Made by a program: the position numbers and the translations under genes. From Schmidtea polychroa (lineage: Eukaryota), in the NCBI GenBank assembly GCA_044892525.1, contig CM097885.1, forward strand, positions 18,788,001-18,852,000: a DNA stretch of 64,000 bases. Direction: 5' to 3'. The notes under the pieces were generated by a model. It saw only the letters and a list, made by a program, of their open reading frames with translations, did no database searches and was not told where the DNA came from. Shown in pieces: positions 6,305-64,000 of this stretch (positions are counted from its first letter, which is position 1; every line of letters begins with the position of its first letter).

Positions 6305-6583
6305 GAACATTATCGACCGAGAACTAACTAGACAATACCGACCGGTTAAGCAACAACAAGCGTCTAAGAGGGAAAAAACGCCACAGAAAAGCCCAACGAG
6401 TACGGCTTAAGGCATGCAAAAAGTTGATCGCGGTCAAAGAACAGGCATAATGATTTTTGTGATTCTTTTGATTTCCTCGGGATAATATAAATTTGTGTTG
6501 GACATTTATTTTTGTTCATTAATAGGGTAGTAAGAGCAAATGATAATTGAAAATCATTATGGAAGAAGAACCTAAATGAAAGT

Positions 6584-6792
6584 CAGACACAGATCTTTTA
6601 TCGACAGTCCGCGAACTCGCTTGAGTACTTGCCGATTATAGTGTACAAAGATACGCTCACTTTTCACTGGTACTCACCCACTCGATGCAGTTCCAACGTT
6701 GATCCCTCAACGAGTATCAAGAGGTACAGCATCATTGTATTCTGTGTTACGATGGAAACAACACCAAAGGGTAAAATGTGAATTACCCACCA
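6584..6792 (-). ncRNA. Candidate structured RNA element, copy C
   Basis: Homologous to 25409-25628 and 60383-60595. CGTTGA-GGGA-TCAACG hairpin and TGAGTAC/GTACTCA stem on the minus strand. Confidence 0.55.
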
Positions 6793-18144: not shown

Positions 18145-18769
18145 TGATAAGATAGTCCCTCATCTGCCCTTTAATCTTTCGCCGACTTTGAGCAGTACCA
18201 ACCTGATTTCCGTCAGGGGCTTATTGATCTGAATATCGACAAGTCATGTGCGTTTGGATGCTGAGGCCATGATCTTTGCTCCATCTTATGCTAGACCAAA
18301 CGCTAACAATAAGCTTATTGGGGCGCAGAAATTATTTAACCTTGGAAATAATGAATAATCTGAACCAAATTATTTCCTAGGCTAAATTATTTTCAAGATT
18401 AAATTATTTTCATAATCTGCATATTGATTTTTAATATGATAGATGACGTAATTCTATATCAGTAGTTCTTAATCGGAATGCCGAAGACGCCTCTACCATT
18501 ATAAATTATTTTTTCGATATTTGAAAACTACTTGAATTAGATTTAATGACAAAATTGCAACAATTAATTTACAAAACAAAGATAATCTATGTTTCATATA
18601 TAGTATTCTGGCTATTTTGAAATATGACAAGATCAAGAAAGATAGAGAGAATCGCAAAATATTTGCCATGTACGAATGAATTAGTATATCATACAAATGA
18701 AGTTAATTGATATCAGGAAATGTTCTATTGACCCTTTTAGTAATTCCCATTCTTGTGTTTATCATCGTT

Positions 18770-24998: not shown

Positions 24999-25405
24999 TG
25001 TTGAGGTTGTTAAAGTAAATTATTAAATTATGTCAAATTGAATAGTTCCGAATAAAAAGAAAACCGAAATTGAACGAAAAAGAATGACAGGGAAGCAGAG
25101 AAGTAATGGCAAAGAAAGATATGATAAAAACAGAACTATAAAAGGTACAATCAGACACGAAATGGAAAATTCGCAAATCTGAGGAAGCGGAATAAAGTGA
25201 AATGTTGCAATGGAGCAATGGTGTATTTGGATGACATTCTGATTTATTCGAACAGTAAAGAAAAACATTATACAATAATCAGTGATATATTAAAAGCGAT
25301 CGAGGAAGCCGGACTAAAAATTAACCAAGAAAAGTGTCAAATAATACAGAAAGAAATCAGATTCTTAGGATACATAATCAGCAAATAAGGAGTACAGACC
25401 GATCC
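24999..25405 (+). mobile_element. LTR start fused to a Gypsy reverse-transcriptase fragment (deleted element)
   Basis: TGTTGAGGTTG start at 24999. 25212-25405 reads GAMVYLDDILIYS...GLKINQEKC...FLGYIISK*GVQTDP. Confidence 0.75.
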
Positions 25406-25408
25406 TTC

Positions 25409-25628
25409 TGGTGGGTTACAGGTACTTTCAAAGTTTCTACCTACTCCTGCTGTTTCCAGCGTAACCCAGGATACAATTTATAGCTGACCACTTGATACCC
25501 GTTGAGTAATCAACGTTGGTACTGTATCAAGGGTTTGGGTACTAGCAAAAAGTGAGCATGCTTAGCATACTATAATTGTCTAGCACCCACTGGGGTTCAC
25601 GGACTGCCGATAGAAGGCCTATGTCCGG
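25409..25628 (+). ncRNA. Candidate structured RNA element, copy A
   Basis: Stems TGGGTTAC/GTAACCCA, AGGTA/TACCT, GCTG/CAGC, CTTGATAC/GTATCAAG and CGTTGA-GTAA-TCAACG; possible GTGAGC/GTTCAC pseudoknot. Confidence 0.6.
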
Positions 25629-25895
25629 TTTCTTTTAGTCCCCGTTATGATAATCAACGTTATGGAAAATTCGAAATGCCCAGATATGAATACACCAGTA
25701 AATATTTATTAGGAGAACACAATCTAAAGTTATAGTGTCGTGGATGATTCCTTCGGAGTAGGCTCTGACACCGCAGAATGATGTGTTAATTGGGCTTGGC
25801 TGGCTTGTCTCATTCTCGCCCGCGCCGCTTTATCCGGTCGGATCTTCTTCCTCGGGACGTTCAGTGATGCGCGCTCCTTTGGGTTGTGGAGCAGC

Positions 25896-26174
25896 TCACT
25901 CATGGGCCGGACTTTGGAGATCCTGTTGGAGAACTTTGATCTCCAGCTCCTTCACTCTAAGGCGGAAGGCCCGCAACTCAACCTGATCTTGGACACTCTG
26001 GAGTTGCAATTGGGTGATGAGTTTCATACGCTTTTTCATCTCTGCTGGCGGAAACCAGGTGCTCTCGAAATTCCGGCAATGGGCCTTGATTCGCACTAAC
26101 TTGGCCCGGTATTCTTCCACTTGTTGTTGCGCCCGCTCTCTATCTGTTCGCATTTCTGCCAGGAGTTTTAGCAC
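25896..26174 (-). CDS. Coiled-coil-like ORF/exon of unknown function, probably an antisense gene of a retroelement remnant
   Basis: GC-rich ORF preceded by a TTTTAG acceptor; heptad-like L/Q/E/R composition. Confidence 0.35.
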   Translation of the reverse strand: MLKLLAEMRTDRERAQQQVEEYRAKLVRIKAHCRNFESTWFPPAEMKKRMKLITQLQLQSVQDQVELRAFRLRVKELEIKVLQQDLQSPAHE

Positions 26175-26599
26175 TAAAACAAGATAACGTTAGTGAGATT
26201 CATATAAGCATCGAGTGTCGAGCATTATTATGATTATCAATACTAAATGAATGCAATCTCTTCGTCGCAGCCCTCCTCTACGCGCACCAAAACCGAGTTC
26301 TATGAATCTTACCAAACCCTATCGGCTGTCAATGTTACGGAAAATTGTAGTCGATAATAATAATAGTTAACGCTAAGAACTTTACCAAGAATCAAGCAAT
26401 ACACACAATTAGATTAATATCGACAACCAAAACCCAATCAAACATTTAACTAAATACAAACTACTAAGACATAACGAATATTATTTTAATTCTGGGTCAA
26501 AGTTATCCAACCCAGCACACAACATCCCAAGGTACAATAATAACGGAGTCATTACAGGATAATTATTTTTATCACAAGACTTTAGTCATGACACAGATG

Positions 26600-27100
26600 T
26601 TAGGGGTGTTGTGCAGCGCTGGCTTTCAGTTTGGTAATCTTCTTGGCGGAGCTGGAGGTTTTTCGTGGGCGTCCGCGTTTTCTCTGCTGGCTCGGCCCAC
26701 GTTGAGGCTTCCTTGGGTATTCCAGCCCACGGCGAAGGGCTGTGATCCGCTTAGTATGACATTGAGCTCGAGCGTAACCGTCAATATCCTCGAGCTCGCC
26801 GGCCAGGGTTGCTGTTTCGAGCCTGTGCAGTCGGTCCACCGCTCTCTTCGCATCGTCGAAGGCGTCGCTCAGAGCCAATGAAGTAAAATTGATATATGGC
26901 TCCACCTTCGGGATCACCGGGACCACATTCTGATAGGTCCAATAATGAATCTTATACCAGATCCATCTAGACCTTAGCCTGGCGATTTCTGCTTCCTCCC
27001 TCAGTCGGACGGCTTCGTCTGCCTCCCCGCCGATACTGTCGAGGCTCCAGTCATTTGACGAGTGACCTTCTTGTACTTTCCTTGGCTCAGTGTTGGGCAT
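26600..27100 (-). CDS. Small basic protein with C-terminal AT-hook (RKRGRPRK)
   Basis: ATG at 27100 just after a CATTACAG acceptor; 166 codons; canonical RGRP AT-hook core. Confidence 0.45.
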   Translation of the reverse strand: MPNTEPRKVQEGHSSNDWSLDSIGGEADEAVRLREEAEIARLRSRWIWYKIHYWTYQNVVPVIPKVEPYINFTSLALSDAFDDAKRAVDRLHRLETATLAGELEDIDGYARAQCHTKRITALRRGLEYPRKPQRGPSQQRKRGRPRKTSSSAKKITKLKASAAQHP

Positions 27101-28557
27101 GGCTGTAATGATAAAAGAGAGGTTAAAACGAATCCTCGTTCTCCCATTTACGTTCGGTTGCTCTAAGACGTTCAATGTACAATTACATTTAAGATCAACG
27201 CGACCCTCATCTCAACGATATCTTAGGTAGGGAAAATGGACCTAAAATGCTAATTAATTTCCCCTTTCGATTTCTTCTTTAATTTAATTTAAGTTGGCTG
27301 GAGACTTACGAAATCCAAGTTTATAAGTCTCGGTTACAGAATTGTAGTTCGTATGTTTAAAGTGGAAATCCATGAGCTTAGTTTTGATAAACTACTGGTT
27401 GATACAGTAGAAGTGAGCGTTTAAAATTTTATAAATTAAACTTTTAATAGTAGTTGTTTAAATCATGCAAAGATTTAATTTAACTATTTATACCACTCTA
27501 TATTAATTCAAATATTAAACTTTTAATAGTGGTTGTTTAAATCATTCAAAGATTTAATTTAACTATTTATTCAAATATTATTTTTCATTTTTTAGAATTC
27601 TCCATTGATAATTTTTTGGCAAAATTTATGCTACTAGGACCCACTATGGGAAGCGGATGTTGCAAATTGTATGAATTTGTATTCAACTCTTTGTGAATCC
27701 CTGACCATAGTGGTTGTAAGTGGCCCTTTCATCAGCTGGTGCTCGATAGTAAGTTAAAATTTTTATCTTTTGTAGTTGCATAATTTCAGGAATGGGTCTC
27801 TAATTCCTCGGTTTTTAGTATTTCAATCATTCACGGTATTGGAGTTATTACTGTTTAGTGGAATCCAAAGTATGGCTATACTCCCAATTCGTGGGCATTT
27901 AGGAGAAATTTCGGGGATTTATGGTGGTTTCAGGATTTTACTGATCTGTGCCACAGGAATTTAAAGTGAAAATTGGGACTCGAGTTTTTCTGAGTAGTCC
28001 CCTTCTAGAAATTCCTTAATATTACCGGTAAGATTCTTTTTGTGATTAGAATGGTTTCGTAAACAAAATTTTTGATTTTATTAAATACATTTTCGCTTTC
28101 GTTGATTCTTATTTAAGTAATTTTGTTTGACGTAAATTAATAATTATCGAATAATTTTGTTAACTCCTCATGAGAACCTATATAGTTAGTAATCACGACT
28201 TGTTATTACTCCTTACTTTTGGTCCTACTGGGTGGGTATTCCGATTCAGACCGTCACTTTCGGGGACTAGGTCCCGTGGCTTACATGCGATCTACTTCTG
28301 GGGTAACAAGGGTTAAATTCATATGGGTGAGATAGTTTTTATCGAAAGATTAGAGTTTCTACTGACATGGTCGATGGCGATTGGCTCGTGTAGGGGAGAG
28401 TATGTGCCACCTATTCGGTCAGTTAGGAGTAGTTCGTAGGGGGTAACCCTTGGTTTGCAGGGTTGTTACTAATAATAGAAGCGGTATTATTGGTCTAACT
28501 TTGCTATGAGGGAAAGAAAAAATCGATACTGTCGGTTTTGAACTTTCCTATTAATAG

Positions 28558-29452
28558 TGTTGGGGTTCAACAAGAGAGGCACAAAAATGAGGTGAAAATT
28601 GACAAAAACACCAAATTCAGAATAAAAATTTAAAGTACAAAATATTAATTAAAAATCAAAAATTTTAAAAAAATGAATATTTTCTGGGGGAAACTGGTAT
28701 GGGCGGATGCTAAATAATGAGACGAGTTCAGCTATAATAAAATAAAATCAATGGGGGTCCCTAAAAGGAATAAATTACAAAAAACAAAAATTAATTAAAA
28801 ATTAATTAACTAATGGAAAACCCGAGCTAATGGGAAACCCGAGCTATTGGAGAACCCGAGCTAATGGGAAACCCGATACAATGGAAAACCCGAGCGAATT
28901 GAGAAATCCAATTTCGGGAAGGCAATTAATTTAGCCGGAGAAATCTAATTTTGGGAAGGCAATTAATTTAGCCGGATAAAAAGTAAAAAGCGCCGTCAAA
29001 CAAATTCCATTCAATTAAATTAGATCTCCAAGAGGAAGCCCGGGGGGAAATAGGACCAAAGATAATTGGCAAAAATAAAGTCAATTATTAAACGAGTATA
29101 AAAGCAACTGGCAAGAAAACAAAATGCCAGTTGGTCGAAGAAAAGAAAATAGAAGTTTGAAGAGAGCGAAAAGGGAAATATTAAAGTTAGTAGAAATTAA
29201 ACCATTTAAAAATCGAACGTACCAGAAAGGGACATCTCCCGTTGGAAGATCTACCCCTGCGTGAGATTTGTTAATAAATTGAAAAGTGCAGACAAAACCT
29301 GATTGTATCAAGTGTGAGTAAACTAATACAAGTGTAAAAGTGTAACTGCATCAGTGTCAATAAAGATTTTGTGTTGGGTTATTTATTTATTTATTTGCAA
29401 AAGAACACAAAGGAGTCAGACCGTAGTACCGACTTACATTAAAAACCCAACA
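28558..29452 (+). repeat. 5' LTR (895 bp)
   Basis: TGTTGGGG...CCCAACA; five 17-bp repeats (28811-28895); TATAAAA at 29097; AATAAA at 29359. Confidence 0.97.
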
Positions 29453-29456
29453 TATT

Positions 29457-29474
29457 TGGTGAGCCCGACGTGAT
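29457..29474 (+). promoter_or_regulatory. Primer binding site, tRNA-Trp
   Basis: TGGTGAGCCCGACGTGAT is complementary at 17/18 positions to the animal tRNA-Trp 3' end as recalled (ATCACGTCGGGGTCACCA). Confidence 0.85.
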
Positions 29475-29843
29475 CAAAAGTCGGTGAAAATTTGTTGAAA
29501 TTGTGATAATATTTGAGTGATACCGAAGATTAAAAAGATCGGTGAAAATTTGTTGAGATTAGTAAAGTATCGGAAAAATTTGGAAAAAGATAATAATTAA
29601 ATAAATAAATATTGAAGTGAAACGTTTATTTGAAAGTGGTGAACATTTATTTGAGAATTATTAAAGTGGTGATTTTATAATTGAAGCAAAGTGGAAAAAT
29701 TTGTAACGATTGATTGTTGAAAAGTCAAAATTAAAACGAAAGGAAAATTTTGTAATTGTAACACTTTGAATTTTAGACGAGTAAAGCCTGTGTTGACACG
29801 ATCATTTTATAAATTGAGAAGCCAAACACTAATAGAGAATTTA

Positions 29844-32800
29844 ATGAGTACCCAAAGACTAACCAATAATACAAATAACAACGACGAAACACCTGTGTCC
29901 ACGGTGGGCAACGGCAAGGAAGGCAATGATTATGCGAGTTGTCAAAAACTACCTGTGGATCAGTACGGTGGAGATCCGCTGGAATTTGTCGATTTTATGG
30001 CAGATTACTATATGTATGCGACGGCCTATGGATGGAGCCAATCGATAATGGTGCAAAGATTACCGCTATACCTAAAAGGAGCAGCCAGAGAAGCGTGGCA
30101 ACAAATTGATAAAAGAATAGTAGCAAATGACTGGACCAAGTTGAAAGACGCGTTAGCCACGAAATTAATCGGAGTGGATATCAAACGGATAATGCGACAG
30201 AAATTCTATAACCGCGTACAAAAGCCAGAGGAATCGGTAAGTGAGTTTGCTTATCATTTATCAACTCTTGCAGAGAAAGCGTTCGAAGTGAAACCAGAAC
30301 AGGCCGAGATGGCAAAGCAGGTAAAAGAATTATTGCAGGATCAATTCTTGTCAGGAGTAAAGAAAGAAATTAAAAAGGCTCTATGCTATGTTGATTTTAA
30401 TGACTTTGATGAATTGATCAAAAAGGCAATGAAAATTGAGCTAAATTTAAAAAGCACACAGTCAAAATCAGAGTCGTTTGCAGTCATCTCAGGCGCAAGC
30501 GAAAGATCAGTAACCCCAATTAGAAACAATCGTTTTCAACAAACAAGTAGTCCATCACCAAAATTTAGATCCAAATTTGAGTCGAACAAGTCAACAGATA
30601 TTCAAATAGATGGAAAGGAAGGTCCCATCCAATGTAGTCATTGCCAAAGGATTGGACACCATGTTAACCAATGCTGGTTTAAAAATAGAGTACAGAGAAG
30701 CCCAATTCCGATTCAGTGTGATAATTGCCAAAGAATGGGACATGACAGCAATCAATGCTGGTTCAAAAATAATGTACAACGGAGTCCAAGGCAAATGTGG
30801 TCTGATTGGTTAAAAGGAAATGGTGCGAAAAGTTTCACTAAAGCGAACATTAATGAGCCGAGAACTAATGATAACTTACAATGCTTTAATTGCGGAAGAA
30901 AAGGGCATGTGTCACGAAATTGTTTTCCAAGGTCAAGATCAACATCAACATCACCATCACCGCAGAGAGATAAAGTAAATCTACAAGGACAAATTCAATG
31001 TCATTCATGCAGAAGTTATGGACACATGGCTAGATCATGTCCAAGAAATATGGATAAATTCCAAAGACCCATATTAAAGAAATCGATTAGGTTTCAGAGT
31101 GACAAACCGCAGATGGATAATGTAGCTTTTATTCAGCCAGATAATTTTAATGAAAGAATTGAAAACGAAGTGAGAGAAATGGGTCGACGTTTGGATCGAT
31201 TGATGTCAAAGTTTGAATCAGAAGAGGACTACAATAATCACATGATGTATGAGTCGCAAGAGGAATTGAATGAAAAAGAGTCGAAAAGGAGAGTTATAAA
31301 AGATGATTTAGAAAGTGAAAAAGCAACAATGATAATGACCAGAATCGAAAAACTAATTGGAAATAATGAAATAGAGTCGGCTAAAGTGATCAAATCGTTG
31401 AGAGAATTAAGTCAAATATCTTTGAGTATGAGAAAGATAAAAAGTGTAATTAGCTTGTGCGTTAACTACTATAATATGAATCCAAAGTATAAAGAAGAAA
31501 TTAAAGAATTAATGAAAATATTTGGAAAAGCTTTGAGAGAGAAAACAGGGTTAGATTCCATCTTGGTGGAAGTAGTAAACGAGATTGATAAAAGTGTATT
31601 ATGTTGTCGTTGTGAGGCAAATGATTGTGTAAATGATTTAAAGAATAAATTAAAAGAAAAAAAGGAAGGATGCATGATAGAGTTGAGATTTAATGAGAGA
31701 TTGTTAGAAAATGACGAATTTTTAGTAGATTGTGGATTTATACCAGGGAATACAAATGAATTAAAAATGGAAAATGTAATTACTAGTGATGAAATAATGA
31801 GTAGTAAAATAATAGACAAAAGGAATTCAAGGGAGATATTAGAGGAATTAAATGATGCGTTATATATTGGAGATGAAGATGAAATCGATGAGAAGTTACA
31901 GATTATTGAGAAATTAGAAATGGAGGACAACGATAAACTAAAAATAGTGAATATAATACGACCATATTTACATGTGAAAACCAGATATGCCAAGTTATTA
32001 AGAAGTTTATTGCAAAGATTGGGCAAGGAGCTCAGAAAGGCAAGAGTAGAGTTAAAGCCATTTTTGATAGCATTAGATTATGAGGGATATGGCAAAACGG
32101 AATATGTAGACGAGCATTGGTGTGCAAAGGTCCGAAAATTGCGGAAGAGAGCGGCTGAAACGCTGGGAAAAGATGGAATTATTATAGTAATGTACAAAGG
32201 TGAAGAACTTGACGATGATGAATACCTATATGATTGTGGGTGTGTACCACAAGAGCTGGATGAAAACGGATATTTGATCCGAGATGGACGAGTGGGATAT
32301 TTAGTGAACCATATAGTCGTAGTAAAAGGAGTGAGTTTAGAAGTAAATATTGAGTCTAACAAGCCTGACACAGAGGAACAAGATGAAAAAGTTAAGGGAA
32401 ATAAAGAAATTGATGAAATCGTTAGTGATAATGAGCAAAAAGATCCTGATAACAAAGATCAGTCCACAGAACCAGACGTACAAGGAGAGCCACTTGTACC
32501 TGAAGGCGAAATAAATGGTGAAATCAAAAATAAGAAAGTTAGAACTTTATATGAAATAAAGAAATATTTAGTGAGGCTAGAACAGGACGTCGACGAAACT
32601 AAGAAAATGTTGAAACATCTCGTTAAAGCAGTATATCCAATGTTCGACATAGAAGTAGAGGTAGATGATGAACTGAAAGAAATAGTTAAAGAGATGAAGA
32701 ATAGGCTTCCTGAAGTGATGCAGAAATTTGGCGAAGAGAATACATTTTGCGAGAGATCAGTAATCGAAAATTTGGCAAAAAATGAAATTAATAAGGAGGT

Positions 32801-34022
32801 TATAATAATAGCTTTAACTTATGTTGTTTTAGAAATTGGAACGCATACGTTCGCAAGGTCAGACAAGTTAGAAAATTTGATAGACATCGCTGCCCGGCTA
32901 GTAAACGAATATTTAATGAGCTGGGTAAACGAAAAAGGTGGTTGGAAAACACTGTGTTCATCTCTAACAGAAAAGAAAAATGAGAAGCAAGAAATGAGTC
33001 CACCCCAAAGACGAGTAAATGAAAGAGTTAAGCCAGAACTAAGAAAAACTATGATATTTCCATGGGCGATGTTTATGGTGATTACGTTTTGTGCAATAAT
33101 TACACAGACATCATCTTTAGTTGCGTACGATTGTTCCCAAACTGAAATGGGAAAAGTTTATTCGGTAGTAGATATGTCGGAATGCCCAGGTGCGTATCCG
33201 AGCAGTTTAAAAATAGAAAATGACGTAAAATATTATGTGTATCAAGAGTCTGATCTGCGAAGAACTCAAGTGAGAGAGTGTATTGTCAAACATACAACAT
33301 TTGTATTCTATTGTGGTAAATGGAGCCATACGTCACTCATAAAAATGCATGCGATACCTAGGCCAGTCGAGGTGCTTCCAGAAAACTGTCTAGCAGCATT
33401 TCAAACAGGAGAATTAAAAATAAGTCCAGAAATTCGTTTAAAGGCAAAATTGAACCATAGAATACGAGAAACAATAATTGTAAAGGGAGTTATGAAAGCA
33501 AATGGCGACTGTGAAGGTGAACCATATAAAATGAACGGTAAAATTATTCAGCAAACAGTGGTGCTAGAAGAATATCTCACGGAGTTGAGAGAGTTCGAAG
33601 GAGCTTTCGATGATGATACGGGAAAATTACAAACTCATCCATTCTGTAATATGAAACAAACACATTGTCAAACAGGGGAATCGATTCTTGTTTATAATGT
33701 AGAAACAAATAAGTGTAATTTAGCGCACTTAAAAACTATGAACTTTAAAGAGCTAGTAGGAGAACAGTTTAGAGATAAACCAGATAATTTCAATATGAAT
33801 TATAGACCAAATAATACCATTAAATCAACCCCAGTATGGACAAAGCAAATGGGAACAGTTTTAATGTCTACGTTACCAAGCATGTGCAGGTTTAATTGGA
33901 ATTTACGTTATTATGATAACGGCAAAGGTGGTAGTGTCGCAAATGTTGTCAGTACATCGAATATACGTAATATCGGGATGGTCATGGAAATTAGTTATTG
34001 GTTGTATTCCATTGTTGGCTAG
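29844..34022 (+). CDS. gag: ORF1 polyprotein: Gag (capsid, 4 CCHC knuckles) - 2x(helical + ubiquitin-like) - Bcl-2-like - signal/TM - N-terminal half of a chuvirus-type glycoprotein
   Basis: First ATG at 29844. LKGAAREAW and QKPEESVSEF capsid motifs; CX2CX4HX4C at 30633, ~30717, 30882 and 30999; WVNEKGGW at 32922; AYDC at 33123; YCGKWSH. Confidence 0.9.
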   Translation: MSTQRLTNNTNNNDETPVSTVGNGKEGNDYASCQKLPVDQYGGDPLEFVDFMADYYMYATAYGWSQSIMVQRLPLYLKGAAREAWQQIDKRIVANDWTKLKDALATKLIGVDIKRIMRQKFYNRVQKPEESVSEFAYHLSTLAEKAFEVKPEQAEMAKQVKELLQDQFLSGVKKEIKKALCYVDFNDFDELIKKAMKIELNLKSTQSKSESFAVISGASERSVTPIRNNRFQQTSSPSPKFRSKFESNKSTDIQIDGKEGPIQCSHCQRIGHHVNQCWFKNRVQRSPIPIQCDNCQRMGHDSNQCWFKNNVQRSPRQMWSDWLKGNGAKSFTKANINEPRTNDNLQCFNCGRKGHVSRNCFPRSRSTSTSPSPQRDKVNLQGQIQCHSCRSYGHMARSCPRNMDKFQRPILKKSIRFQSDKPQMDNVAFIQPDNFNERIENEVREMGRRLDRLMSKFESEEDYNNHMMYESQEELNEKESKRRVIKDDLESEKATMIMTRIEKLIGNNEIESAKVIKSLRELSQISLSMRKIKSVISLCVNYYNMNPKYKEEIKELMKIFGKALREKTGLDSILVEVVNEIDKSVLCCRCEANDCVNDLKNKLKEKKEGCMIELRFNERLLENDEFLVDCGFIPGNTNELKMENVITSDEIMSSKIIDKRNSREILEELNDALYIGDEDEIDEKLQIIEKLEMEDNDKLKIVNIIRPYLHVKTRYAKLLRSLLQRLGKELRKARVELKPFLIALDYEGYGKTEYVDEHWCAKVRKLRKRAAETLGKDGIIIVMYKGEELDDDEYLYDCGCVPQELDENGYLIRDGRVGYLVNHIVVVKGVSLEVNIESNKPDTEEQDEKVKGNKEIDEIVSDNEQKDPDNKDQSTEPDVQGEPLVPEGEINGEIKNKKVRTLYEIKKYLVRLEQDVDETKKMLKHLVKAVYPMFDIEVEVDDELKEIVKEMKNRLPEVMQKFGEENTFCERSVIENLAKNEINKEVIIIALTYVVLEIGTHTFARSDKLENLIDIAARLVNEYLMSWVNEKGGWKTLCSSLTEKKNEKQEMSPPQRRVNERVKPELRKTMIFPWAMFMVITFCAIITQTSSLVAYDCSQTEMGKVYSVVDMSECPGAYPSSLKIENDVKYYVYQESDLRRTQVRECIVKHTTFVFYCGKWSHTSLIKMHAIPRPVEVLPENCLAAFQTGELKISPEIRLKAKLNHRIRETIIVKGVMKANGDCEGEPYKMNGKIIQQTVVLEEYLTELREFEGAFDDDTGKLQTHPFCNMKQTHCQTGESILVYNVETNKCNLAHLKTMNFKELVGEQFRDKPDNFNMNYRPNNTIKSTPVWTKQMGTVLMSTLPSMCRFNWNLRYYDNGKGGSVANVVSTSNIRNIGMVMEISYWLYSIVG

Positions 34023-37000
34023 ATTCTTTATTACAGATCATCAATTTAAAGAAATGGCAAGAGTAAGGGCACAATTAAGAAATGGCCGGAAAAGTGAGGA
34101 ATCGACGTGTCAGTCGGAAGATAAAAACGACAATCATAATGATGATAACAACAACGGGGAATCGGAGCATAAATGCTTTCGAAAAAGTGCAATAAAGAGT
34201 AAAGTAGAGCCAGAGTCCAGGTTCTTGCTTGAACCAATGCCAAAATTAAGCGGGATTGATACTCTTAGTAGATGGTATACCCCGACATTTAGACCAACAG
34301 CACCAGTATATCCAAGTGAAAAACTAAAAGAGATGAAATCGGTCGATAATATCACAATAGAATTAGAGAAGATTGAACCAACGAGTGCTGAAATTGAAAG
34401 AAAGAATATGCTTGGTCTACCATGCAGCTATGCACTAATGACAACAGTAGTAGGAGGAAAACAACCTCGAATAAACATACAGTTTAACAAGAGAAAAGTG
34501 GAAGCTTTATTAGACTCAGGCTCAAGTCATACTATAGTAGCGGAAAGTTTCTTGACGTATCAGGAGAAAGCCAAAATAAAACCAACGAATCACATTATTA
34601 AATCAATGTCACATAATGCACTAAATATTGTTGGAAAATTAGAAGTTAAACTTATAATTGGAGATCAAGAAATAATTCATTGGGTATCAGTGATGAGAAA
34701 AAGTCCTGTAAAATGTCTTATTGGCATGGATGTCATGGAGCAACTACGTGGAATCTCTCTTGATCTGAGAACTGGAAAACTAATAAAAGGACAAATGGGT
34801 GAAGTAGTGCCTGAAGTAGGAGAGGTATTTCTAAACCAAACATTGGAAGTACCACCAAAAAGCGAAGTAATATACTATGCAGATGTTATGAGGGTCTCAG
34901 ATGAGGAGTACATATTTGAGCCAAATCAAAAGCTGGTTGAAAAATACGATGTGCCTATGTGTGATGAAGTAGTGAAAGTTCAAAACAAGTCAGTACCAGT
35001 TAGAATAGCGAATTATAGTGCAAGATCCGTTGAAATAAAGCCCAAAACCAAATTGGGAAAATTAACAAAAATCAAATCAGAGGAAGCTCAGAAGTTACCG
35101 AGGAATATAAAAATTTATAAAGAACCTCAGATCACAAGCAAAGATTTGACGGATTTGCAAAAACAAGAATTCAGTGCATTATTAAAGAAATATAGAAATG
35201 TATTTGCAAAACATGAGTATGATCTGGGACTCACTCAGGTGATTGAGCATGAAATACCATTACTCAACGAAACCCCAATAAAATTACGGCCGTACAGAAT
35301 ACCATACATACATCAGGAAGAAAGTGATCGGCAAATCAAAGCAATGAAAGAATTCAATATAATAAGAGATAGTTCCTCACCATTCTCATCATCAATAGTA
35401 GTAGTTAAAAAGAAGGACGGTGATTTAAGATTTTGTGTTGACTATCGAAAACTGAACCAAGTAACGAGAAAAGATACATATCCTATTCCTGTTCCACAGG
35501 AAATGTTCGATCAGATGGGGGAGGTGCAATATTTTACGGTAATAGATCTTAATAAAGGATACAATCAATTTAAAGTCAAAGAGGAAGATAGAAGGAAAAC
35601 TGCATTTTCAGATGGGAAGGGTCTATATGAGTTTAACGTGTTACCATTCGGATTAACAGGAGCACCTGCTACATTTCAGAGAGGTATGAATTTTGTTTTG
35701 CGCGATATACCACATGCATTAGTGTATATTGACGATATAATAATATTTTCGAATAGTTTTCAGGAACATTTGCAGGATGTGGAAACAGTATTCAAGCGAT
35801 TGTTAGAAGCAAACTTAAAAATAAAACCCTCCAAATGTGAATGGAGAAAATCTGAAGTAGTTTATGTGGGTCATATCATTTCGCGTCGAGGTTTGCAACC
35901 AAATCCAGAAAATGTAGAGAAAATTAAGGAATATCCTATTCCCAAGGATGTAGATCAGGTTCGACAATTTCTGGGATTAGCTAGTTATTACAGAAAGTTT
36001 ATTAAAAGTTTCTCACATGTCGCACAACCTTTGAACATGTTATTGAAAAAGCAAGCAAAATTTAAATGGACAAAAGCTCAGCAAGAAGCGTTTGATAAAC
36101 TCAAAGAAAGCTTAATAAAACAGCCGATATTAAGATGTCCGAACTTTAAAAAACCGTTTATATTAATGACAGATGCCAGTAATTTCGCATTAGGCGCGGT
36201 ATTAGGACAGCAAGTAGAATGGGAAAAAGATCATGTAATTGCTTATGCCAGCAGATCATTGAAACCTCATGAGAAAAATTATTCGACAATCGAAAAAGAA
36301 ACGTTAGCATTGGTATATGGGATAACCACTTTTCGACAATACCTAGTGGGCAGAAAATTTGTTGTCTTTACGGATCACAATCCGTTACAATGGCTAATGA
36401 AGCACAGAGATTCGGCCAGTAAATTAATTAGGTGGTCAATCGCGTTACAAGAATATGATTTCGAGATAAAGTATCGTACAGGGAAGTCAAATGCAAATGC
36501 GGATGCTATGTCAAGAATACCAGTGGAAAATAATGTTGATCAGGATGAGAAAAATTGCGAAAATACAATATTTATGGCAATAAAAACCGCAAATAATATA
36601 GAAAAATTACAAGATGATCAAGAAAATGACGAGGAATTAAATCAGTTACGCCAACATGCTGTCACAATCAAAAAGGAGAGTGACTGGAAACATATTGCCG
36701 AAGAGAACCATAAATACATTATTCATGATGGTTTGTTAAAATGTGTACAAAATGAAAATTTGTTAATTATTGTTCCGACAAAACATCGAAAATCATTACT
36801 GTTGTTGTATCACGATGGAGCATTAGGAGGGCATTTATCAGCGCGAAAAACATTATCAAGATTGAAACAGAAATATTATTGGAAAACGATGGAACAAGAT
36901 GTCAGACAATGGTGTCATACGTGTGAGATATGCCTAACAAGACGAAATACGGGACGGAAAATAAAAGTTCCGCTTAAGCCTATGCCAGTGCCCAAGGCGC

Positions 37001-39153
37001 CAATGGAAATGACAGCAATGGACATCGTTGGTCCATTGCCGGAAACAACAAATGGCAAAAAATACATTATCGTTTTTTGCGATTATCTTACTAAATGGCC
37101 AGAAGCTTATGCAATGCCAAATCAGAAAGCAGAAACAGTTGCGAAAATATTTGTGGAGAATATTATTTTTCGATACGGAGCACCAAAGAAATTACTTACA
37201 GATCAAGGAACAAATTTTCAGAGTGAATTATTTAAATCAATCACAGATTTATTTGGTATATTGAAACTTAGTACCTCACCATATCATCCACAGACAGATG
37301 GTCTAGTTGAAAGATTTAATGGGACACTAATTAATATGATATCATCCTATGTAAATAGGAAACAAAAGGATTGGGATTTATTCATTAAACCATGCTTATT
37401 TGCATACCGGAATGCAGTAAATGAAAGCACTGGAGAAACACCCTTTTATCTCATGTATCTACGACGAAACAATATGCCAGTCGATCTAGAATTTCAGTCG
37501 CCTATTTCCCAATATATGGATGTGTCAGATTATAAAATAGCTATGCATGAAAGACTACAGTTAGTATGGATCCAAGCTGGACTTAACATAAGGCATCATC
37601 AAGAAGCGTATAAAGAATGCTATGATAAACGCGCACGGGCGCATGACATTAAAATTGGAGATCTCGTGTATATAAACAAACCAGAACCAACAAAAGGCTT
37701 GTCAACGAAATTGCAACGACCGTTTAAAGGACCATATCTAGTGTGTGATACGACAGAGACTAACTTAAAATTGCGTCCACAAAACAATAAAAAGGCTGGG
37801 ACAATCATCGTTCATGTAAATAGATGCAAAAAGATAATAGAAGATGAATCACGTTATCCATTGAGATCAAAGCCAAATAAAGATGCAGGGAACCCAGTAA
37901 TTAAACAAAAGTTTACAAAAAACCCTGCTCCATTGAGTTACATCAATAAAGTTTTATTGATTACAACAGTAATGATTATCAATATAATGTCAGTAAATGC
38001 AGTGAGAGTATTCCCGTTATATGCAACTAATACAGTTGTATTATTAGACAAAGTTCATATTTATTCAACATGTACTCAAATAGTTTGGGTTTATTATGCT
38101 GGAGGAGCAGAAGAAATAGAGATAAATAATCTAATAAACTATTTTGAACCCCCAATAAAATTGAACAGCACCAAAAATATTTATGTGGCTAGACAATTAA
38201 CAATGAATTATGAATACCCTTGGTTAATTACGCAATTGGATTCGAAAAGTAATAATACAAAAATACAAAATCTTATACGCATTAATATTTGGACAAAGAG
38301 ATTACATAATCGAGTATCAATTGAACCACTGGTAAATGGAATTGACATATATTGGGAACCCCAGGAATCCCAACAAGTAAAAGCAGTTTTTCAAAATTAT
38401 GCGATAGATACATTGAATAGCAGAAAACCCTTTATAAAGTATGCAAATTTAAAATTACATCATAACTATAATATTCTGATTCACTATTATGAAAAATCTT
38501 TATACGAAAACGGAACTGAAATTGATAGTCAATGGATCAGAATACACTCTAGTCAACATATGATACGATTAGTTAATGAAACAAATCGGGTTACTTTTCA
38601 TATTTTCAATCAATTAGTGAATGTTACCCGACAAGCGGAGCCCAATCAAAAAGCTATTTTATATTATTATGGAAAAATTCAATCGATATTAAATGAAAAA
38701 AATAAATCTCAAATATTAACTTTTCGTCAACGTTCACCAATATCGACGTCAAAATTTGTGTTCATTAAAATAAAATACTATAGACGTTCTCTATTTTCAA
38801 ATCTATGGCAATTAACTTTAGTGGAAAATAAAATTGTGCAAATTCCATCTATTAACTCGCAGTATGGAAATCGAAACAAATCAAATCAGTCCAACCAAAC
38901 CCCTAGCTCTGCCAACGTAATCATCTTTTCTAGCATCAATGAGTCAATGACTAATAACGAAACCATATCGTCATTAAAAACTGACAGTGAAATTGTGTGT
39001 GTAACATTATTAATAACTACTCTCATTATAACAATCTCTCTCATTATTCTCATTATCATTGTGCTAATTGAATTTCGAACAATACCCAAACCTTCTACGA
39101 ATCGATCCGAGATTGCGAGACCTTGGATCGTTTATGAAGAAACATTTGTGTAG
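33865..39153 (+). CDS. pol: ORF2 polyprotein: glycoprotein C-terminal TM and tail - protease - RT - RNase H - integrase - FN3-like type I membrane protein
   Basis: Frame open from 33865 (track ATG at 33913). LLDSGS (D at 34513), YIDD (35725), TDAS, HHCC, D-D-E and GPY motifs; second signal peptide at 37951-38001; TM at 38992-39069. Confidence 0.95.
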   Translation, partial: CLRYQACAGLIGIYVIMITAKVVVSQMLSVHRIYVISGWSWKLVIGCIPLLARFFITDHQFKEMARVRAQLRNGRKSEESTCQSEDKNDNHNDDNNNGESEHKCFRKSAIKSKVEPESRFLLEPMPKLSGIDTLSRWYTPTFRPTAPVYPSEKLKEMKSVDNITIELEKIEPTSAEIERKNMLGLPCSYALMTTVVGGKQPRINIQFNKRKVEALLDSGSSHTIVAESFLTYQEKAKIKPTNHIIKSMSHNALNIVGKLEVKLIIGDQEIIHWVSVMRKSPVKCLIGMDVMEQLRGISLDLRTGKLIKGQMGEVVPEVGEVFLNQTLEVPPKSEVIYYADVMRVSDEEYIFEPNQKLVEKYDVPMCDEVVKVQNKSVPVRIANYSARSVEIKPKTKLGKLTKIKSEEAQKLPRNIKIYKEPQITSKDLTDLQKQEFSALLKKYRNVFAKHEYDLGLTQVIEHEIPLLNETPIKLRPYRIPYIHQEESDRQIKAMKEFNIIRDSSSPFSSSIVVVKKKDGDLRFCVDYRKLNQVTRKDTYPIPVPQEMFDQMGEVQYFTVIDLNKGYNQFKVKEEDRRKTAFSDGKGLYEFNVLPFGLTGAPATFQRGMNFVLRDIPHALVYIDDIIIFSNSFQEHLQDVETVFKRLLEANLKIKPSKCEWRKSEVVYVGHIISRRGLQPNPENVEKIKEYPIPKDVDQVRQFLGLASYYRKFIKSFSHVAQPLNMLLKKQAKFKWTKAQQEAFDKLKESLIKQPILRCPNFKKPFILMTDASNFALGAVLGQQVEWEKDHVIAYASRSLKPHEKNYSTIEKETLALVYGITTFRQYLVGRKFVVFTDHNPLQWLMKHRDSASKLIRWSIALQEYDFEIKYRTGKSNANADAMSRIPVENNVDQDEKNCENTIFMAIKTANNIEKLQDDQENDEELNQLRQHAVTIKKESDWKHIAEENHKYIIHDGLLKCVQNENLLIIVPTKHRKSLLLLYHDGALGGHLSARKTLSRLKQKYYWKTMEQDVRQWCHTCEICLTRRNTGRKIKVPLKPMPVPKAPMEMTAMDIVGPLPETTNGKKYIIVFCDYLTKWPEAYAMPNQKAETVAKIFVENIIFRYGAPKKLLTDQGTNFQSELFKSITDLFGILKLSTSPYHPQTDGLVERFNGTLINMISSYVNRKQKDWDLFIKPCLFAYRNAVNESTGETPFYLMYLRRNNMPVDLEFQSPISQYMDVSDYKIAMHERLQLVWIQAGLNIRHHQEAYKECYDKRARAHDIKIGDLVYINKPEPTKGLSTKLQRPFKGPYLVCDTTETNLKLRPQNNKKAGTIIVHVNRCKKIIEDESRYPLRSKPNKDAGNPVIKQKFTKNPAPLSYINKVLLITTVMIINIMSVNAVRVFPLYATNTVVLLDKVHIYSTCTQIVWVYYAGGAEEIEINNLINYFEPPIKLNSTKNIYVARQLTMNYEYPWLITQLDSKSNNTKIQNLIRINIWTKRLHNRVSIEPLVNGIDIYWEPQESQQVKAVFQNYAIDTLNSRKPFIKYANLKLHHNYNILIHYYEKSLYENGTEIDSQWIRIHSSQHMIRLVNETNRVTFHIFNQLVNVTRQAEPNQKAILYYYGKIQSILNEKNKSQILTFRQRSPISTSKFVFIKIKYYRRSLFSNLWQLTLVENKIVQIPSINSQYGNRNKSNQSNQTPSSANVIIFSSINESMTNNETISSLKTDSEIVCVTLLITTLIITISLIILIIIVLIEFRTIPKPSTNRSEIARPWIVYEETFV

Positions 39154-39585
39154 TAAGACATAAATACTTTGCATGCAAAAATTGATAAAGTAGTAGTAGT
39201 AATATAGTATAAATATTTTATGGATATTATTAATATTTTTTTTCTTTATGGATATGATCAATATTTCATTTTATTTTACTTGTGAATCTGCACTTTTCAA
39301 TGTCAACGGAAAGAATCAATTTGATTGGTTAGCGCTGTGTTAAGGGGGAGAAAAAAACGGGGTTAAGGGAATTTTCATAAGGGTATTAAAAGAGGGTAAA
39401 ATCCATTAAACTCCATTAATTTTCAAAAAAATATATATATCAACAATTAACTAAACGGTAATTATTATTATTATTATTATTTATACAGCTAGTAGCTGGG
39501 ACAGTATCCTTCGGATACTTCATCTCAGCCCTAGTTTTAAAAGTAAAGTAAATTCAAACGTTAAATTATAACTATTTTAGCAAAA

Positions 39586-41046
39586 ATGGAACAAGTACAA
39601 TGGACAAGATCCACCTACGACAGTTACTTCAAGATGCAGAAAAATCATGCCAGCCAACAATTATACGAAATCAATGAAAATTTACAAATTCCAAATTATT
39701 TGAGGATAGATGACAGAAGAATGAAGATACGAATGTTTACAATAAGGAGAAATTCAGAATTGAAATTGACAGATGAAATTGAGTTGTCTCGGAAGGAAGA
39801 ATATCACATACACGTGATCAGAGGTACAGTGGAAGTGCTGAAGAACGATAATACAATATGGTGGCAACTTCGAAAATTCACATCGTGGAAGCTGCAGAAG
39901 GACTCCATGTGGAGAACACTACGAGCAGCGAATGAGGAGACAACGTTGGTGGTGGAAATCAGAACTGAGAATGAAGCGGATGAGGTACCACAGATGCATC
40001 TAATTGAAGGAGAAGACCCAATGTTATTGAAAATTTCAAAGGAAATGTTGAAAAAGAAAATGTCGTTTCTCAGAAAAGAAATGGATCTAGAAGAAATCCG
40101 CAGTAGAATATTATTCATTGATGCTGAATATGGCACATCAGAGCAAGGGAAAATGGTCCCTTTAGCAATAGCAATTATGAATTATTATGGGAAAGTAGTA
40201 AAAGATGTATACCTCACTCCAAGAGGAAAAATCCGACATTTTAATTCAAGGATCCATGGAATTACAGAAGTGGCCAGCAGGAACCAATGTGATCAATATG
40301 TGGCAATGAAAGAGATACAACGCTTGACAGTAGGCAAAATATTGATCGGCCATGATTTGCATGCAGAATTACAATACTTGGGGATATGGATTGAACAATT
40401 GTACGGCATTCGAGATCTAGCAGCAGCACCAATACTTCAGAACATGGGAGTAACCATAAGGGGAGAATGGTTCAAACTACAAACAGTGGTGAAAGAAATA
40501 TGTGGAGAACAGACTCAGATGAGTATTCATTCGGCTCTCGAGGACGTGAAAAGTATACGCAAGGTATACCAGAAAGTGGAAAGTCAATGGATTGATGACA
40601 TACCGATGCCCAAAAATCAACCGTCAAAGCGATATTCGTGGGATGAATATAAGAAGCTTCGGGAAATTGAATCAACATCAACTGCAATACCAGAAAAACT
40701 AACGCAAATTCCAATTGAAGATGTAATGGAATCTGAAGAAATTGATTTAACATTCGAGGAGAATGTGACGATGGATAGTGAAAATCCATTGATTCAACTG
40801 AAGTGGGCCAATGAATCATTCTTAGAAATTGCGGAAGGTGTCGCATTAATGGTAAGCATACCGATGATAAGGATACATCCAACACTTGAATATGGTCCAA
40901 TGCCAGAATGTAGAAAATCCAAAAAGAGAAAAACAACTTCGAACATTGATGTCGGAGACACTGTCAATGGTGTAGTATATGAACGCGAAGAAACAATAAT
41001 ACGATATCGGCATGAAACGAAACGATTAGAAATAAAGATGGATTAA
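39586..41046 (+). CDS. ORF3: cupin-like N-terminus + DEDDh 3'-5' exonuclease (REX4/ISG20-like)
   Basis: ExoI FIDAEY (40120), HGIT, ExoII-like LIGHDLHAEL, ExoIII HSALED; intact 486 aa. Confidence 0.85.
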   Translation: MEQVQWTRSTYDSYFKMQKNHASQQLYEINENLQIPNYLRIDDRRMKIRMFTIRRNSELKLTDEIELSRKEEYHIHVIRGTVEVLKNDNTIWWQLRKFTSWKLQKDSMWRTLRAANEETTLVVEIRTENEADEVPQMHLIEGEDPMLLKISKEMLKKKMSFLRKEMDLEEIRSRILFIDAEYGTSEQGKMVPLAIAIMNYYGKVVKDVYLTPRGKIRHFNSRIHGITEVASRNQCDQYVAMKEIQRLTVGKILIGHDLHAELQYLGIWIEQLYGIRDLAAAPILQNMGVTIRGEWFKLQTVVKEICGEQTQMSIHSALEDVKSIRKVYQKVESQWIDDIPMPKNQPSKRYSWDEYKKLREIESTSTAIPEKLTQIPIEDVMESEEIDLTFEENVTMDSENPLIQLKWANESFLEIAEGVALMVSIPMIRIHPTLEYGPMPECRKSKKRKTTSNIDVGDTVNGVVYEREETIIRYRHETKRLEIKMD

Positions 41047-41659
41047 TTTTTATATATTGTATTTATAAAATAAATAATTGTGAACTCGATTTTGTCTCAT
41101 GTATTTATTGGCAGCGCATCAGTTAGACCCCAAAATAAGAATAAATAAGTAAATAATTGAGAGTAAATAAATAATCAAATAAATAAATAAAACTATTATT
41201 GTGTATAACAACAAACACATTTCCAATTGTCGGGGTTTGGCTACCCTGGACAACAATTGGAAATGAGTGGTTGTAAAGAGCCACATAAACAGGTTGCGAC
41301 AAATCATAACAATTTATAATTTATTAGACAAAAAGGAATTGATAAATATTTTCAAATCATAATAGAAATTTTCGATATTTATAATTCATTTAAACAAATT
41401 TAAAATATTAATTCATAAAAATAATATATATATATTGCCAAAGAAAATATTGAATTCACTGACTCAGCCACTTGTAGGCGAAAAGATAACAAACATTTTT
41501 ACCAAAAAAAAATTATAACATAATAACAGTAAGAGACCTTGAACAAATACTTGGAAATGTTGTTTGAAAGCAAGTGATAAAATAAATTTATTCAATATAA
41601 AATCACACTTTCCATTTCATTTTATTTAAATTGTTATAGATAATTATGGAATATCTTAC

Positions 41660-42033
41660 CTGAAATATCACATAAAACATTAAGATCGCGCAGCCTGAAT
41701 TAACTCGATATTTACAAATAATTAATGCACTTCCCATTAATTGACAAATAATATTTATTAGTAGAAAAAATTCAATAATCAAAGAATTCATTTTCCCATA
41801 AACTGGAAATAAAATCTATTTGTTCACTCCACGGGGTAATTAATTGATATCCATCTTCAATAAAGGTCGACACTAAACAAACTCGAGCAATATGAGGTAA
41901 GAATCGACGTGTCTTTCTAATTACCTAGCATACAACTGAAAATTGAAAAGAAAATATACAAATTTACTATATCAGCATAATTCTCTAAATTTGTCAAACA
42001 ATCCTTTTTATTATTTCGAATAGAATCAACCAT
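41660..42033 (-). CDS. SURF4: SURF4/Erv29-like gene (N-terminal part), antisense inside the LTR element; exons 42033-41968 and 41924-41660; one +1 frameshift near 41795
   Basis: Spliced read MVDSIRNNKKDCLTNLENYADI|VIRKTRRFLPHIARVCLVSTFIEDGYQLITPWSEQIDFISSLW-MNSLIIEFFLLINIICQLMGSALII, versus SURF4 as recalled ([45 protein letters not shown]). 43-nt GT-AG intron. Confidence 0.85.
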
Positions 42034-43584
42034 TAAGAAATTTACAACGTAGTAATTTAAAATTAAAATTAGTCTAATTATTCAAGTTTATAAACTCGAT
42101 AAGTGATTGTATTTTCTTTTCTGTAAAAATATAATTTTCTGTTATTACATTTTAATAAAAAAATAAAATAAATGGCATACCGATTTCTTTACACTTTGTT
42201 CATTTTCCAAGAACTCTCAGAAAATAGTTTGGCATTTTATCTGCAACAATATCAAAGCTCATTATATAGTTTTATAACGAGCCTAAGTGAGCAAGCGAAC
42301 GGTTCGTGGTCTTATCTGTTGGCGATATGTGTCGAGTCCAGTGTCTTTCTAAACTGAAATTAGCCGTCTCTAAAATCGCTTGAAGTTCTGCAATAAAAGT
42401 CAATGACTAGTTCCAATTTGATGGCTGTCGTGTTAAAATGAAATGACTTAATCGCCTATCACACACATACACGAGAGAAGAGGGAAAGTGACACACCTCC
42501 TAGTATGAAAGAAGTCAAAACAACAAAACAAATTAAATTACCCTTGAATTAGTCCAAATTGTAGATGTGTAACAAATTCAATCGGATGATTGGTGGATTT
42601 AATTATCATTTTCCTTTTGGAATTTTCCTATCTCCCGTCAAAAGTGCAAACCAATTTCTTAAATAATTTCGGTTTTAGATCTGAAATTGAAAAACAAATT
42701 GAATTACCCTCAACTGCAATTGAATTAGTTGATTGGATCAAAAAGAGAAAAACCGCAACTACAATTGAATTAGTTAAATAAATTTTTTTCAACAAATTCC
42801 AAAAACGTGATATATTTTGTTTTAATGGCATGCTAATATTTCATGAAGGAGGCAGTGAATAACAAAACAAAAATGTCAAATTATAATTCAGAATGATTTT
42901 CTTAGAGATTATTGGAAAATATAAAATAATAAAATATTGTTTTGGTTGACATTTAAGAAACAGAATTGTCAAAAGCAGCTGAATAAATATGAAAAATAAA
43001 TTTTTTTCAACAAATTCCACCATGTTCAACTAAGTTGAATAACAAAATAATTTTTTTTAAATTATTATTAATATTATTATTATATCAAACTGATTTTCTC
43101 ATTAATTTCTTTTGTTTCTCTTTTGGAAAAAAATTCTGTGAAATAATAGTTTAAAATAAATAGCTAAGCAACTATCTGTGATGAACCCAACTTGATATCA
43201 TATTGTATACACTGCACAGTGCATTTCATCATGTACAAACAAATATTATGATGCCCGATACACAACTGTCACCAATATTACAATTATTATCATCATCATT
43301 ATTAATTATTATTAGTATTGTTATCGGTAGTATTATTATCGTCATTATTATTGTTATTAGTATTAACATTATTATTTATATTAAGTAGTGTGAGGATGAT
43401 GGGGGGGGGGGGGGGAGTCGAATAAGGAAATTTCAAAATAAAATATCTCAGATTTAAAATCATTGGCAAAGGCAATAGCTAAAATAGGTAGATAGCAATC
43501 CATTTTTATTATTATTATTATTATTGTTATTACTGTATGGTAAATTTGACTTATTATATGCAGATTCGAGGTCGAATCTAAATT

Positions 43585-43595
43585 AAAGGGGGAGA
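43585..43595 (+). promoter_or_regulatory. Polypurine tract
   Basis: AAAGGGGGAGA, 2 nt upstream of the 3' LTR. Confidence 0.9.
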
Positions 43596-43597
43596 TA

Positions 43598-44459: not shown

Positions 44460-44487
44460 ATAGTAACGTTTTATTGATAATCATGTT

Positions 44488-63895: not shown

Positions 63896-64000
63896 AATAA
63901 ATTATAACTCAATTAAATATGATTGTCAAAAATGACAAATATATTTAAACAAACTTTTATTTTATGTAATTCAAATGTAAATAAAATTTATTATAAATAT

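Follow-up and report, generated by a model that had tools for sequence, protein, structure and literature searches.

The locus and its features

In the window analysed here, a stretch of 64,000 nucleotides of Schmidtea polychroa DNA, the initial annotation had described a structured RNA motif in three diverged copies. These copies lie where they were reported, with a pairwise identity of 71-77%, but a fourth, distant and partial copy had been missed; it was detected with a model of one domain of the motif, D3 (21.5 bits, rough E 0.0003). The features of the window discussed below are the following:

6580..6792, plus strand: copy C, a decayed LTR end of an older subfamily; the element sense is plus here
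18145..18308, plus strand: fourth copy, partial, belonging to a fifth, old family, with D3 at 18185-18227
25206..25408, plus strand: decayed gypsy RT fragment, the insertion target, whose frame picks up again after 49842
25409..49842, minus strand: whole solo LTR of copy A, with target duplication CTTC and nested insertions inside
25409..25628, minus strand: copy A, the terminal U5 structure of this solo LTR, with four domains; the element sense is minus
25733..26189, minus strand: LTR-internal ORF2, broken in copy A; no Pfam family was found for a young relative
26600..27211, minus strand: LTR-internal ORF1, no Pfam family
28558..44459, plus strand: nested tRNA-Trp-primed gypsy element with a fusion-glycoprotein domain, a separate element in LTR A
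60383..60790, minus strand: copy B, a deletion derivative of 408 nt in which both LTR ends are joined

In copy B the lower stem of domain D1 is damaged and no target duplication was seen, and copy C lacks 7 nt close to its terminus. LTR A is interrupted by the tRNA-Trp-primed element, which has its own LTRs (28558-29452 and 43598-44459) and target duplication (ATAG) and does not carry the motif, and by a second insertion. A weak profile match (E 2e-5) is located at 50749-50874 (minus strand); it corresponds to the 3' half of the motif, read on the strand of the initial annotation, and is absent from the matches of the D3 model. Elsewhere in the window are encoded an intron-less frame with an RRM and an RS-rich region, resembling transformer-2/SR splicing factors (63128-63901, minus strand), and several hAT-type transposase remnants (8904-23016).

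DNA searches of the organism's own AT-rich genome (781 Mb) returned 2,608, 2,247 and 1,081 first-look candidates with copies A, B and C, respectively, and 40 candidates per copy were scored. Genome-wide, the motif has more than 1,000 candidates. Since A-type copies share an identical start base preceded by unrelated flanks, the motif corresponds to one end of a mobile element. Contigs from sequencing runs that we guess to be RNA also span the motif; they carry neither strand nor end information.

A Burro-type giant LTR element

In twenty 10-kb stretches, a common unit of 4-7 kb was found with the motif at one end and a fixed terminus at the other. Read on the element strand, this unit has TG...CA ends, and of the 17 A-type LTRs whose two ends are visible, 13 are flanked by a 4-bp target duplication, which is absent from the other four (three of these abut an internal region). 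These ends and duplications identify the units as solo LTRs. Furthermore, two young full elements have LTRs of 4.3 kb that are 100% identical, lie about 30 kb apart and are flanked by 4-bp duplications. According to Pfam, the internal frames of one of them encode a zinc knuckle, a MATH domain, a fusion glycoprotein, a protease, an RT, an RNase H, an integrase and ankyrin repeats, together with RING, TRAF and BIR domains, and the env-like fusion domain sits between gag and pol in the polyprotein, whose frame was read as 2182 + 2608 aa in adjacent stretches.

This domain architecture is that of Burro/GYPSM1, the giant gypsy-like LTR retrotransposons of planarians (PMC6431247), which are also described as exceeding 30 kb, with LTRs of 4-6 kb, a single frame of about 4,800 aa and RING/TRAF/BIR ORFs; in its available text, this description covers the proteins and mentions neither a U5 RNA structure nor the primer tRNA. 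The motif is thus the U5 terminus (the last ~220 nt) of Burro-type giant gypsy LTRs, "Burro-type" denoting architecture here and not a match by name to Burro-1 to -4.

The earlier proposal of a retroelement cis-RNA therefore stands in its main point, but its strand is most likely the opposite one, and the RT remnant to which it was tied is unrelated. Indeed, the flanks vary between copies and the CTTC duplication encloses the entire LTR, which makes the RT remnant the target of the insertion. Likewise, the convergent "antisense" ORF ends said to face the motif are, at copy A, those of sense ORFs inside the LTR, and near copy C no such ORF was found by tblastn. Both LTR ORFs are conserved inside LTRs, with about 30-40% identity between subfamilies, and weak relatives of ORF2 holding the word GTWFSP are present in LTRs of the sister families X and Z (see below).

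Several further traits of these LTRs were observed. The LTR 5' terminus (e.g. 49812-49842 in the window) forms a conserved hairpin of about 11 bp, which is found in a diverged form in the mini-LTR of copy B. The sequence preceding the 3' LTR in the motif's own family is not purine-rich, whereas the nested Trp-primed element has an ordinary polypurine tract. LTRs of this group are often inserted beside or inside each other, the insertion points including the terminal hairpin and positions immediately beyond the motif, and the frames beside one genomic LTR insertion resemble Polinton/Maverick genes (packaging ATPase, integrase). At LTR positions 300-400 there is a conserved (C/T)ATAAAAATGGCG block, with an AATAAA about 56 nt further on. 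In one run, poly(T) loose ends fall at LTR positions ~353 and ~392, in an A-rich context; they lack a DNA control and may reflect internal priming. A promoter and a poly(A) site may, tentatively, be placed near the LTR 5' end, at positions 300-400; U5 would then measure about 4-5.5 kb and contain two ORFs, and the strong-stop DNA would be unusually long.

Domains of the U5 fold

On the element sense strand, the fold of copy A is composed of the following parts, from the 5' side to the LTR terminus:

25600..25627, minus strand: D1, a hairpin with an internal loop and the apical loop UUCUA-N-C at 25609-25615
25593..25599, minus strand: linker UGAACCC, between D1 and D2
25537..25588, minus strand: D2, a long stem with the core GU-[hairpin]-GCUC-AC and the 4-nt bulge GCUC at 25554-25557
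25488..25534, minus strand: D3, an 8-9 bp stem, an 8x1 internal loop and a 5-6 bp hairpin
25516-25523, minus strand: the 8-nt strand AGUACCAA of the D3 internal loop, opposite a single G at 25499
25409..25476, minus strand: D4, a three-way junction ending at the LTR terminus
25471-25476, minus strand: UUGUAU, which in 5' LTRs is predicted to pair with the LTR-PBS spacer (this spacer is absent at the solo copy A)

Primer-binding site and sister families

In full elements, the LTR end is followed by an 8-nt spacer and then by an 18-nt PBS. This PBS is perfectly complementary to the last 18 nt of a tRNA-Pro(UGG) of this genome. Exact matches to this PBS number 1,058 genome-wide; 90 of the first 100 were taken and 89 were recovered. 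Among these 89 sites, 86 belong to four LTR families, namely W, the motif's own (26), X (14), Y (33) and Z (13), and the other three are truncated or unrelated.

All four families are tRNA-Pro-primed and have the four domains in common; the stems are rewritten, but the unpaired words (UUCUA, GCUC and AGYACCAA/G) are nearly fixed. Indeed, (i) two 6-mers, among them CUUCUA, are retained by 80% or more of the copies in each of the four families, (ii) GCUCAC is present in 85 of the 86 PBS-linked copies, (iii) AG(C/U)ACCAA is present in 79 of the 86, and (iv) the linker word G(A/G)ACCC is found in 69 of the 73 copies of W, X and Y and in none of the 13 of Z. When 11 representatives were folded independently, D2, D3 and D4 reappeared on the sense strand; D1 was predicted as a hairpin in W and recognised by inspection in X, Y and Z. 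A fifth, old family, that of the fourth window copy, is also related: D1 followed by G(A/G)ACCCG is kept in 4 of the 10 relatives of this copy that were examined, and relatives elsewhere retain D1, the linker and D3.

A helix between U5 and the LTR end plus spacer, ending 0-3 nt before the PBS, is predicted in all four families from differing sequences. A family's own spacer performed better in this helix than another family's spacer in 31 of 32 copies, and better than shuffled spacers also in 31 of 32 (8 related copies per family). As the spacer is present at the 5' LTR-PBS junction only, the fold is tied to the leader of the genomic RNA. The D3 model found no match in the U5 of any of the 30 tRNA-Trp-primed sites searched, the single match obtained being an inserted W-type LTR end. 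Both tRNAs are encoded in very large tandem arrays (tRNA-Pro, 475-nt unit, 1,550 pattern matches; tRNA-Trp, 284-nt unit, 821 matches), and they are the primers of these abundant LTR groups.

Covariation and strand

The existence of covarying stems, as initially proposed, was borne out in a larger alignment. In the model of 58 pairs, 89.2% of the cells are paired over 78 distinct copies, against 28-40% in slid controls, and both sides are changed in 235 cells, compared with 98.7 in shuffles (none of 500 reaching this value), an excess inflated by the kinship of the copies; counted by pair, only 26 of the 58 have a double change, against 21 expected. Over 33 copies of the families aligned at D3, 97.4% of the cells are paired, 11 of the 13 pairs change on both sides, and the covariation is 0.671 against 0.212 in shuffles; RNAalifold recovers D3 unprompted. 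On 79 mixed copies, the same program returned almost no structure because most of the copies are decayed, and the raw mutual information mainly reflected the division into B-like and C-like copies; these two measures were replaced with counts for named structures and with neighbour-shared tallies.

The fold is most likely read on the element sense strand, that is, opposite to the strand of the initial annotation, in which G-U pairs and GNRA loops were considered to fix the orientation. Non-Watson-Crick pairs shared with the two nearest neighbours, and hence inherited, comprise 122 cells at 12 positions that are A.C on the annotated strand (G.U on the sense strand), against 7 cells at one position that are G.U on the annotated strand; this tally covers 49 core pairs in 199 copies and omits nine edge pairs and two edge positions that are G.U on the annotated strand. 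Private changes in the same tally amount to 233 against 175. The folding z-score of copy A is -3.66 on the sense strand and -2.26 on the other. In families X, Y and Z, the sense fold is more stable by 9-25 kcal/mol in 8 of 8 copies, and the family-majority pairs of D2 and D3 read on this strand as 59 Watson-Crick, 7 G.U, 0 A.C and 2 other, whereas in family W the sense fold is the more stable in only one of three copies and the antisense fold in two. The GNRA argument cancels, as each strand offers one GNRA-type loop (GAAA/GUAA on the sense strand); moreover, the GNRA loop is not kept in the sister families.

The 6-bp pseudoknot of the initial annotation did not hold either: one of its pairs is broken in 17 of the 78 copies, its double changes are singletons, and its outer pairs are absent from the sister families. 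A remnant of three of four pairs, between the GCUC bulge and the linker, may nonetheless exist.

Possible contacts with the primer tRNA

In the host tRNA-Pro, the T-loop and the 5' strand of the T stem (linear nt 50-56) are complementary to the linker. This match spans 6-7 nt in W, X and Y and reaches 8 nt in remnants of the fifth family, with p 0.05-0.08 by run length and 0.02-0.28 by energy, the word being absent in Z; for the linker-tRNA duplex, p is 0.02-0.10 in families W and X. The D3 bulge, which holds CCA(A), gave p 0.07-0.09 as a duplex with the anticodon arm of tRNA-Pro, its variant AGUUCCAA does not pair with this arm (p 0.87), and with the start of the PBS the bulge gave p 0.10-0.34. 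The 3' strand of D1 forms a duplex with the PBS at p<0.05 in 12 of 15 copies of W, Y and Z and in none of 5 copies of X. Furthermore, the CCC of the linker can pair with the start of the PBS, and it often does so with the G run there when the PBS is included in the fold.

Taken jointly, the four unpaired words are not significantly complementary to tRNA-Pro (p 0.25 with Watson-Crick pairs, 0.11 with G.U included), the tRNA-Trp control giving 16 against 16 and 17 against 20, so that a direct contact with the tRNA is hypothetical. The linker has three further candidate partners (the D1 loop, the D2 bulge and the PBS), and its conservation consequently does not single out the tRNA. UUCUA and GCUC, which have no tRNA partner, look like tertiary or protein contacts; pairing of the D1 loop with the tRNA D arm was rejected (p 0.8).

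In the tRNA-Trp-primed LTRs, the most conserved 7-mer, GGAGTCA, is complementary to the anticodon arm of tRNA-Trp, and none of 1500 shuffles gave a match as long; it occurs in 15 of the 17 U5 sequences left by a crude ungapped filter, which represent perhaps 5-6 real families. GGAGTCA lies about 30-60 nt before the PBS across otherwise dissimilar tRNA-Trp LTR families, and at 29419-29425 of the window in the U5 of the nested element. Primer-matched U5 words therefore exist in this genome, which lends indirect support to a tRNA contact of the U5 fold. Many Trp-primed U5s also hold GAACAC or ACGCAACC, whose complements lie in the T or variable arm; GAACAC was rejected as a universal PAS of these families, being present at only 18 of 30 sites, several others having ACGCAACC.

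Comparison with known systems

No match to a known Rfam family was found at the gathering threshold in the window, at E<=10 for copy A, or at E<=1 for eight sister-family loci. Pattern scans outside the genome returned at least 118 stretches from metagenomes and 11 from viruses. Searched with the D3 model, 91 of these 129 loci yielded nothing credible, and a PBS-like word lies downstream in just one of the 129; the pattern matches are therefore taken to be due to chance. A phage collection gave no match to the motif, and no homologue outside this genome was found in the metagenome, viral and phage collections. No published description of the U5 structure of these elements was found either, although the main Burro papers may mention one. 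The U5 RNA of these giant gypsy elements is real and deeply conserved, with no earlier description found.

The closest parallels are found in other primer-site RNAs. In the accessible parts of the HIV-1 literature, PAS, A-rich-loop and C-rich contacts lie upstream of the PBS (PMC11251516, PMC1865047), and the PAS pairs with the T arm of the primer tRNA (PMC1865047, PMC11251516). As in that PBS domain, the U5 described here has candidate words for pairing with the 5' T arm of the primer, and possibly with its anticodon arm, and a pairing of U5 that frames and, by prediction, can mask the primer site. In contrast to HIV-1, as far as those sources go, (i) the scaffold measures 220-290 nt and has four domains, (ii) the PAS-like word lies 185-240 nt upstream, measures only 6-8 nt and is missing in one family, and (iii) fixed bulges are common to families with little shared stem sequence. 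Ty1 and Ty3, in the portions of the reports available, also have LTR-retrotransposon RNA folds near the PBS, such as the 5' pseudoknot of Ty1, and a proposed tRNA contact beyond the 3' end (PMC4974528, PMC5371799); there, a short bipartite PBS is combined with boxes 3' of the PBS or in the 3' UTR, whereas here the PBS extends over 18 nt in full and the whole structure is contained in U5. D1 alone resembles the xrRNA_LT of Luteoviridae/Tombusviridae, in that both are hairpins interrupted by an internal loop, and the apical loop may pair with the sequence immediately 3' of the stem. According to the available part of its description, xrRNA_LT forms a loop-to-3' pseudoknot of 4-5 bp with a joiner of about 6 nt holding AGY (bioRxiv 10.1101/2020.04.30.070631); in D1 there are three universal pairs, a joiner of 0-3 nt and no AGY joiner in the right place.

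Other RNA classes were compared by topology. In T-box riboswitches, the specifier loop of Stem I pairs with the tRNA anticodon. The U5 fold shares with Stem I a conserved asymmetric internal loop holding the codon of the partner tRNA (CCA) and a T-loop-like hairpin, but it has no Rfam match, no K-turn and no antiterminator, it belongs to a eukaryotic retroelement, and its putative anticodon contact is not significant by shuffling. HDV-like ribozymes are defined by a nested double pseudoknot with a P2 helix and a conserved L3; by inspection, a 3-bp stem with a 7-nt loop fits in size, but a downstream P2 partner is missing and the loop letters differ. No B box of the kind expected in a Pol III/SINE-type RNA was seen by inspection, a tRNA-like mascRNA end was rejected (its second arm has no T-loop and the feature is lost in the sister families), and the resemblances to group II domain V and to twister do not fit in topology.

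Possible roles of the U5 fold

Position directly 5' of the tRNA-Pro PBS, together with a D4 helix that includes the spacer, places primer handling, which was not among the functions initially listed, first among the possible roles. With moderate confidence, we consider that the U5 fold is probably a scaffold of the PBS domain which both masks the primer site and presents it, contacts tRNA-Pro, and governs primer loading and the start of reverse transcription. In the absence of the primer, the 3' strand of D1 and the linker would fold back onto the PBS, closing D2-D4 into a single compact domain. Once the last 18 nt of the tRNA had annealed, its freed T arm would pair with the linker G(A/G)ACCC, acting as a PAS analogue, and the D3 bulge could touch the anticodon arm. 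The copies found in solo LTRs and 3' LTRs would have no function and simply reflect the duplication of the LTR.

Among the functions initially put forward, a packaging or dimerisation signal is a live rival, although we regard it as unlikely. The bulges and the loop would bind Gag/nucleocapsid or form intermolecular contacts, and the closeness of the PBS would be incidental or secondary. This would account for invariant unpaired words without a clear pairing partner and agrees with a location on the sense strand of the 5' leader, where cis-signals and Gag sites of Ty1 lie according to the accessible text of a published account (PMC4974528); the D2 arms are, moreover, palindromic in family W. 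However, X, Y and Z do not keep these palindromes, a conserved self-complementary apical loop is absent, the D4 helix is bound to the spacer beside the PBS, and a signal located wholly in the LTR would presumably tag transcripts of the many solo LTRs as well.

The fold could also be imagined as a T-box-like clamp that selects the primer, a tentative suggestion that we doubt: the D3 bulge would read the anticodon arm and the linker the T arm, D1 would act as a decoy hiding the PBS, and planarian gypsy elements would rewrite this clamp upon a change of primer. Under this reading, the simple anticodon-arm complement of the Trp families would stand in for such a clamp.

The remaining functions of the initial list (IRES, nuclease block, ribozyme) are little supported. 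It is improbable that D1 and the linker form an exonuclease-blocking pseudoknot, or that the fold self-cleaves or is processed, and so trims a long leader or ends read-through from solo LTRs. In all families the D1 loop can pair over 3-5 bp with purines just 3' of the hairpin, in a topology reminiscent of the plant-virus xrRNA_LT (bioRxiv 2020.04.30.070631, in the part available), and the family W sense strand terminates in a 7-bp stem plus ACCA. Yet the universal pairs are only three, the apical loop of 6-7 nt and the short joiner differ from the ~6-nt AGY joiner of xrRNA_LT as far as that description extends, the Rfam searches gave neither a ribozyme nor an xrRNA, the stem-plus-ACCA end is missing from X, Y and Z, and cleavage at the fold would part R from the PBS and thus block replication.

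We give still less credence to a translation element (IRES) or a splicing/poly(A) regulator of the long leader. If the promoter and poly(A) site lie near LTR 300-400, which has weak support, the leader exceeds 4 kb with two ORFs, and internal initiation or splicing would then be needed; however, the first internal AUG lies about 730 nt and the polyprotein about 3 kb downstream, no ORF begins at the motif on either strand, and no Rfam IRES matched. Finally, a function of the antisense strand, as an antisense RNA or in the minus-strand strong-stop DNA that starts at the LTR end, is very improbable: in family W the GNRA-type loop, an invariant G.U in the proposed pseudoknot and the greater antisense stability of two of three copies speak for it, but the inherited wobbles (122 to 7), the energies of the X, Y and Z copies and their D2/D3 pairs, all given above, favour the sense strand, and the GNRA loop is not conserved.

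Significance

Primer-site RNA is well mapped in HIV-1 and Ty1 and, according to the part of a review available, not in Ty3. Here, natural copies in thousands and five diverged families yield a covariation-backed model with a few near-invariant bulges. With a transcript of 250 nt and a single tRNA, it thus becomes possible to test how a metazoan gypsy element selects its primer and how initiation proceeds. The word found in the Trp-primed LTRs further suggests a general primer-matched code in these LTRs. Burro1 is reported, second-hand and in the accessible part of the source, to support stem cells and regeneration (PMC13465017), and its replication signals are for this reason of interest.
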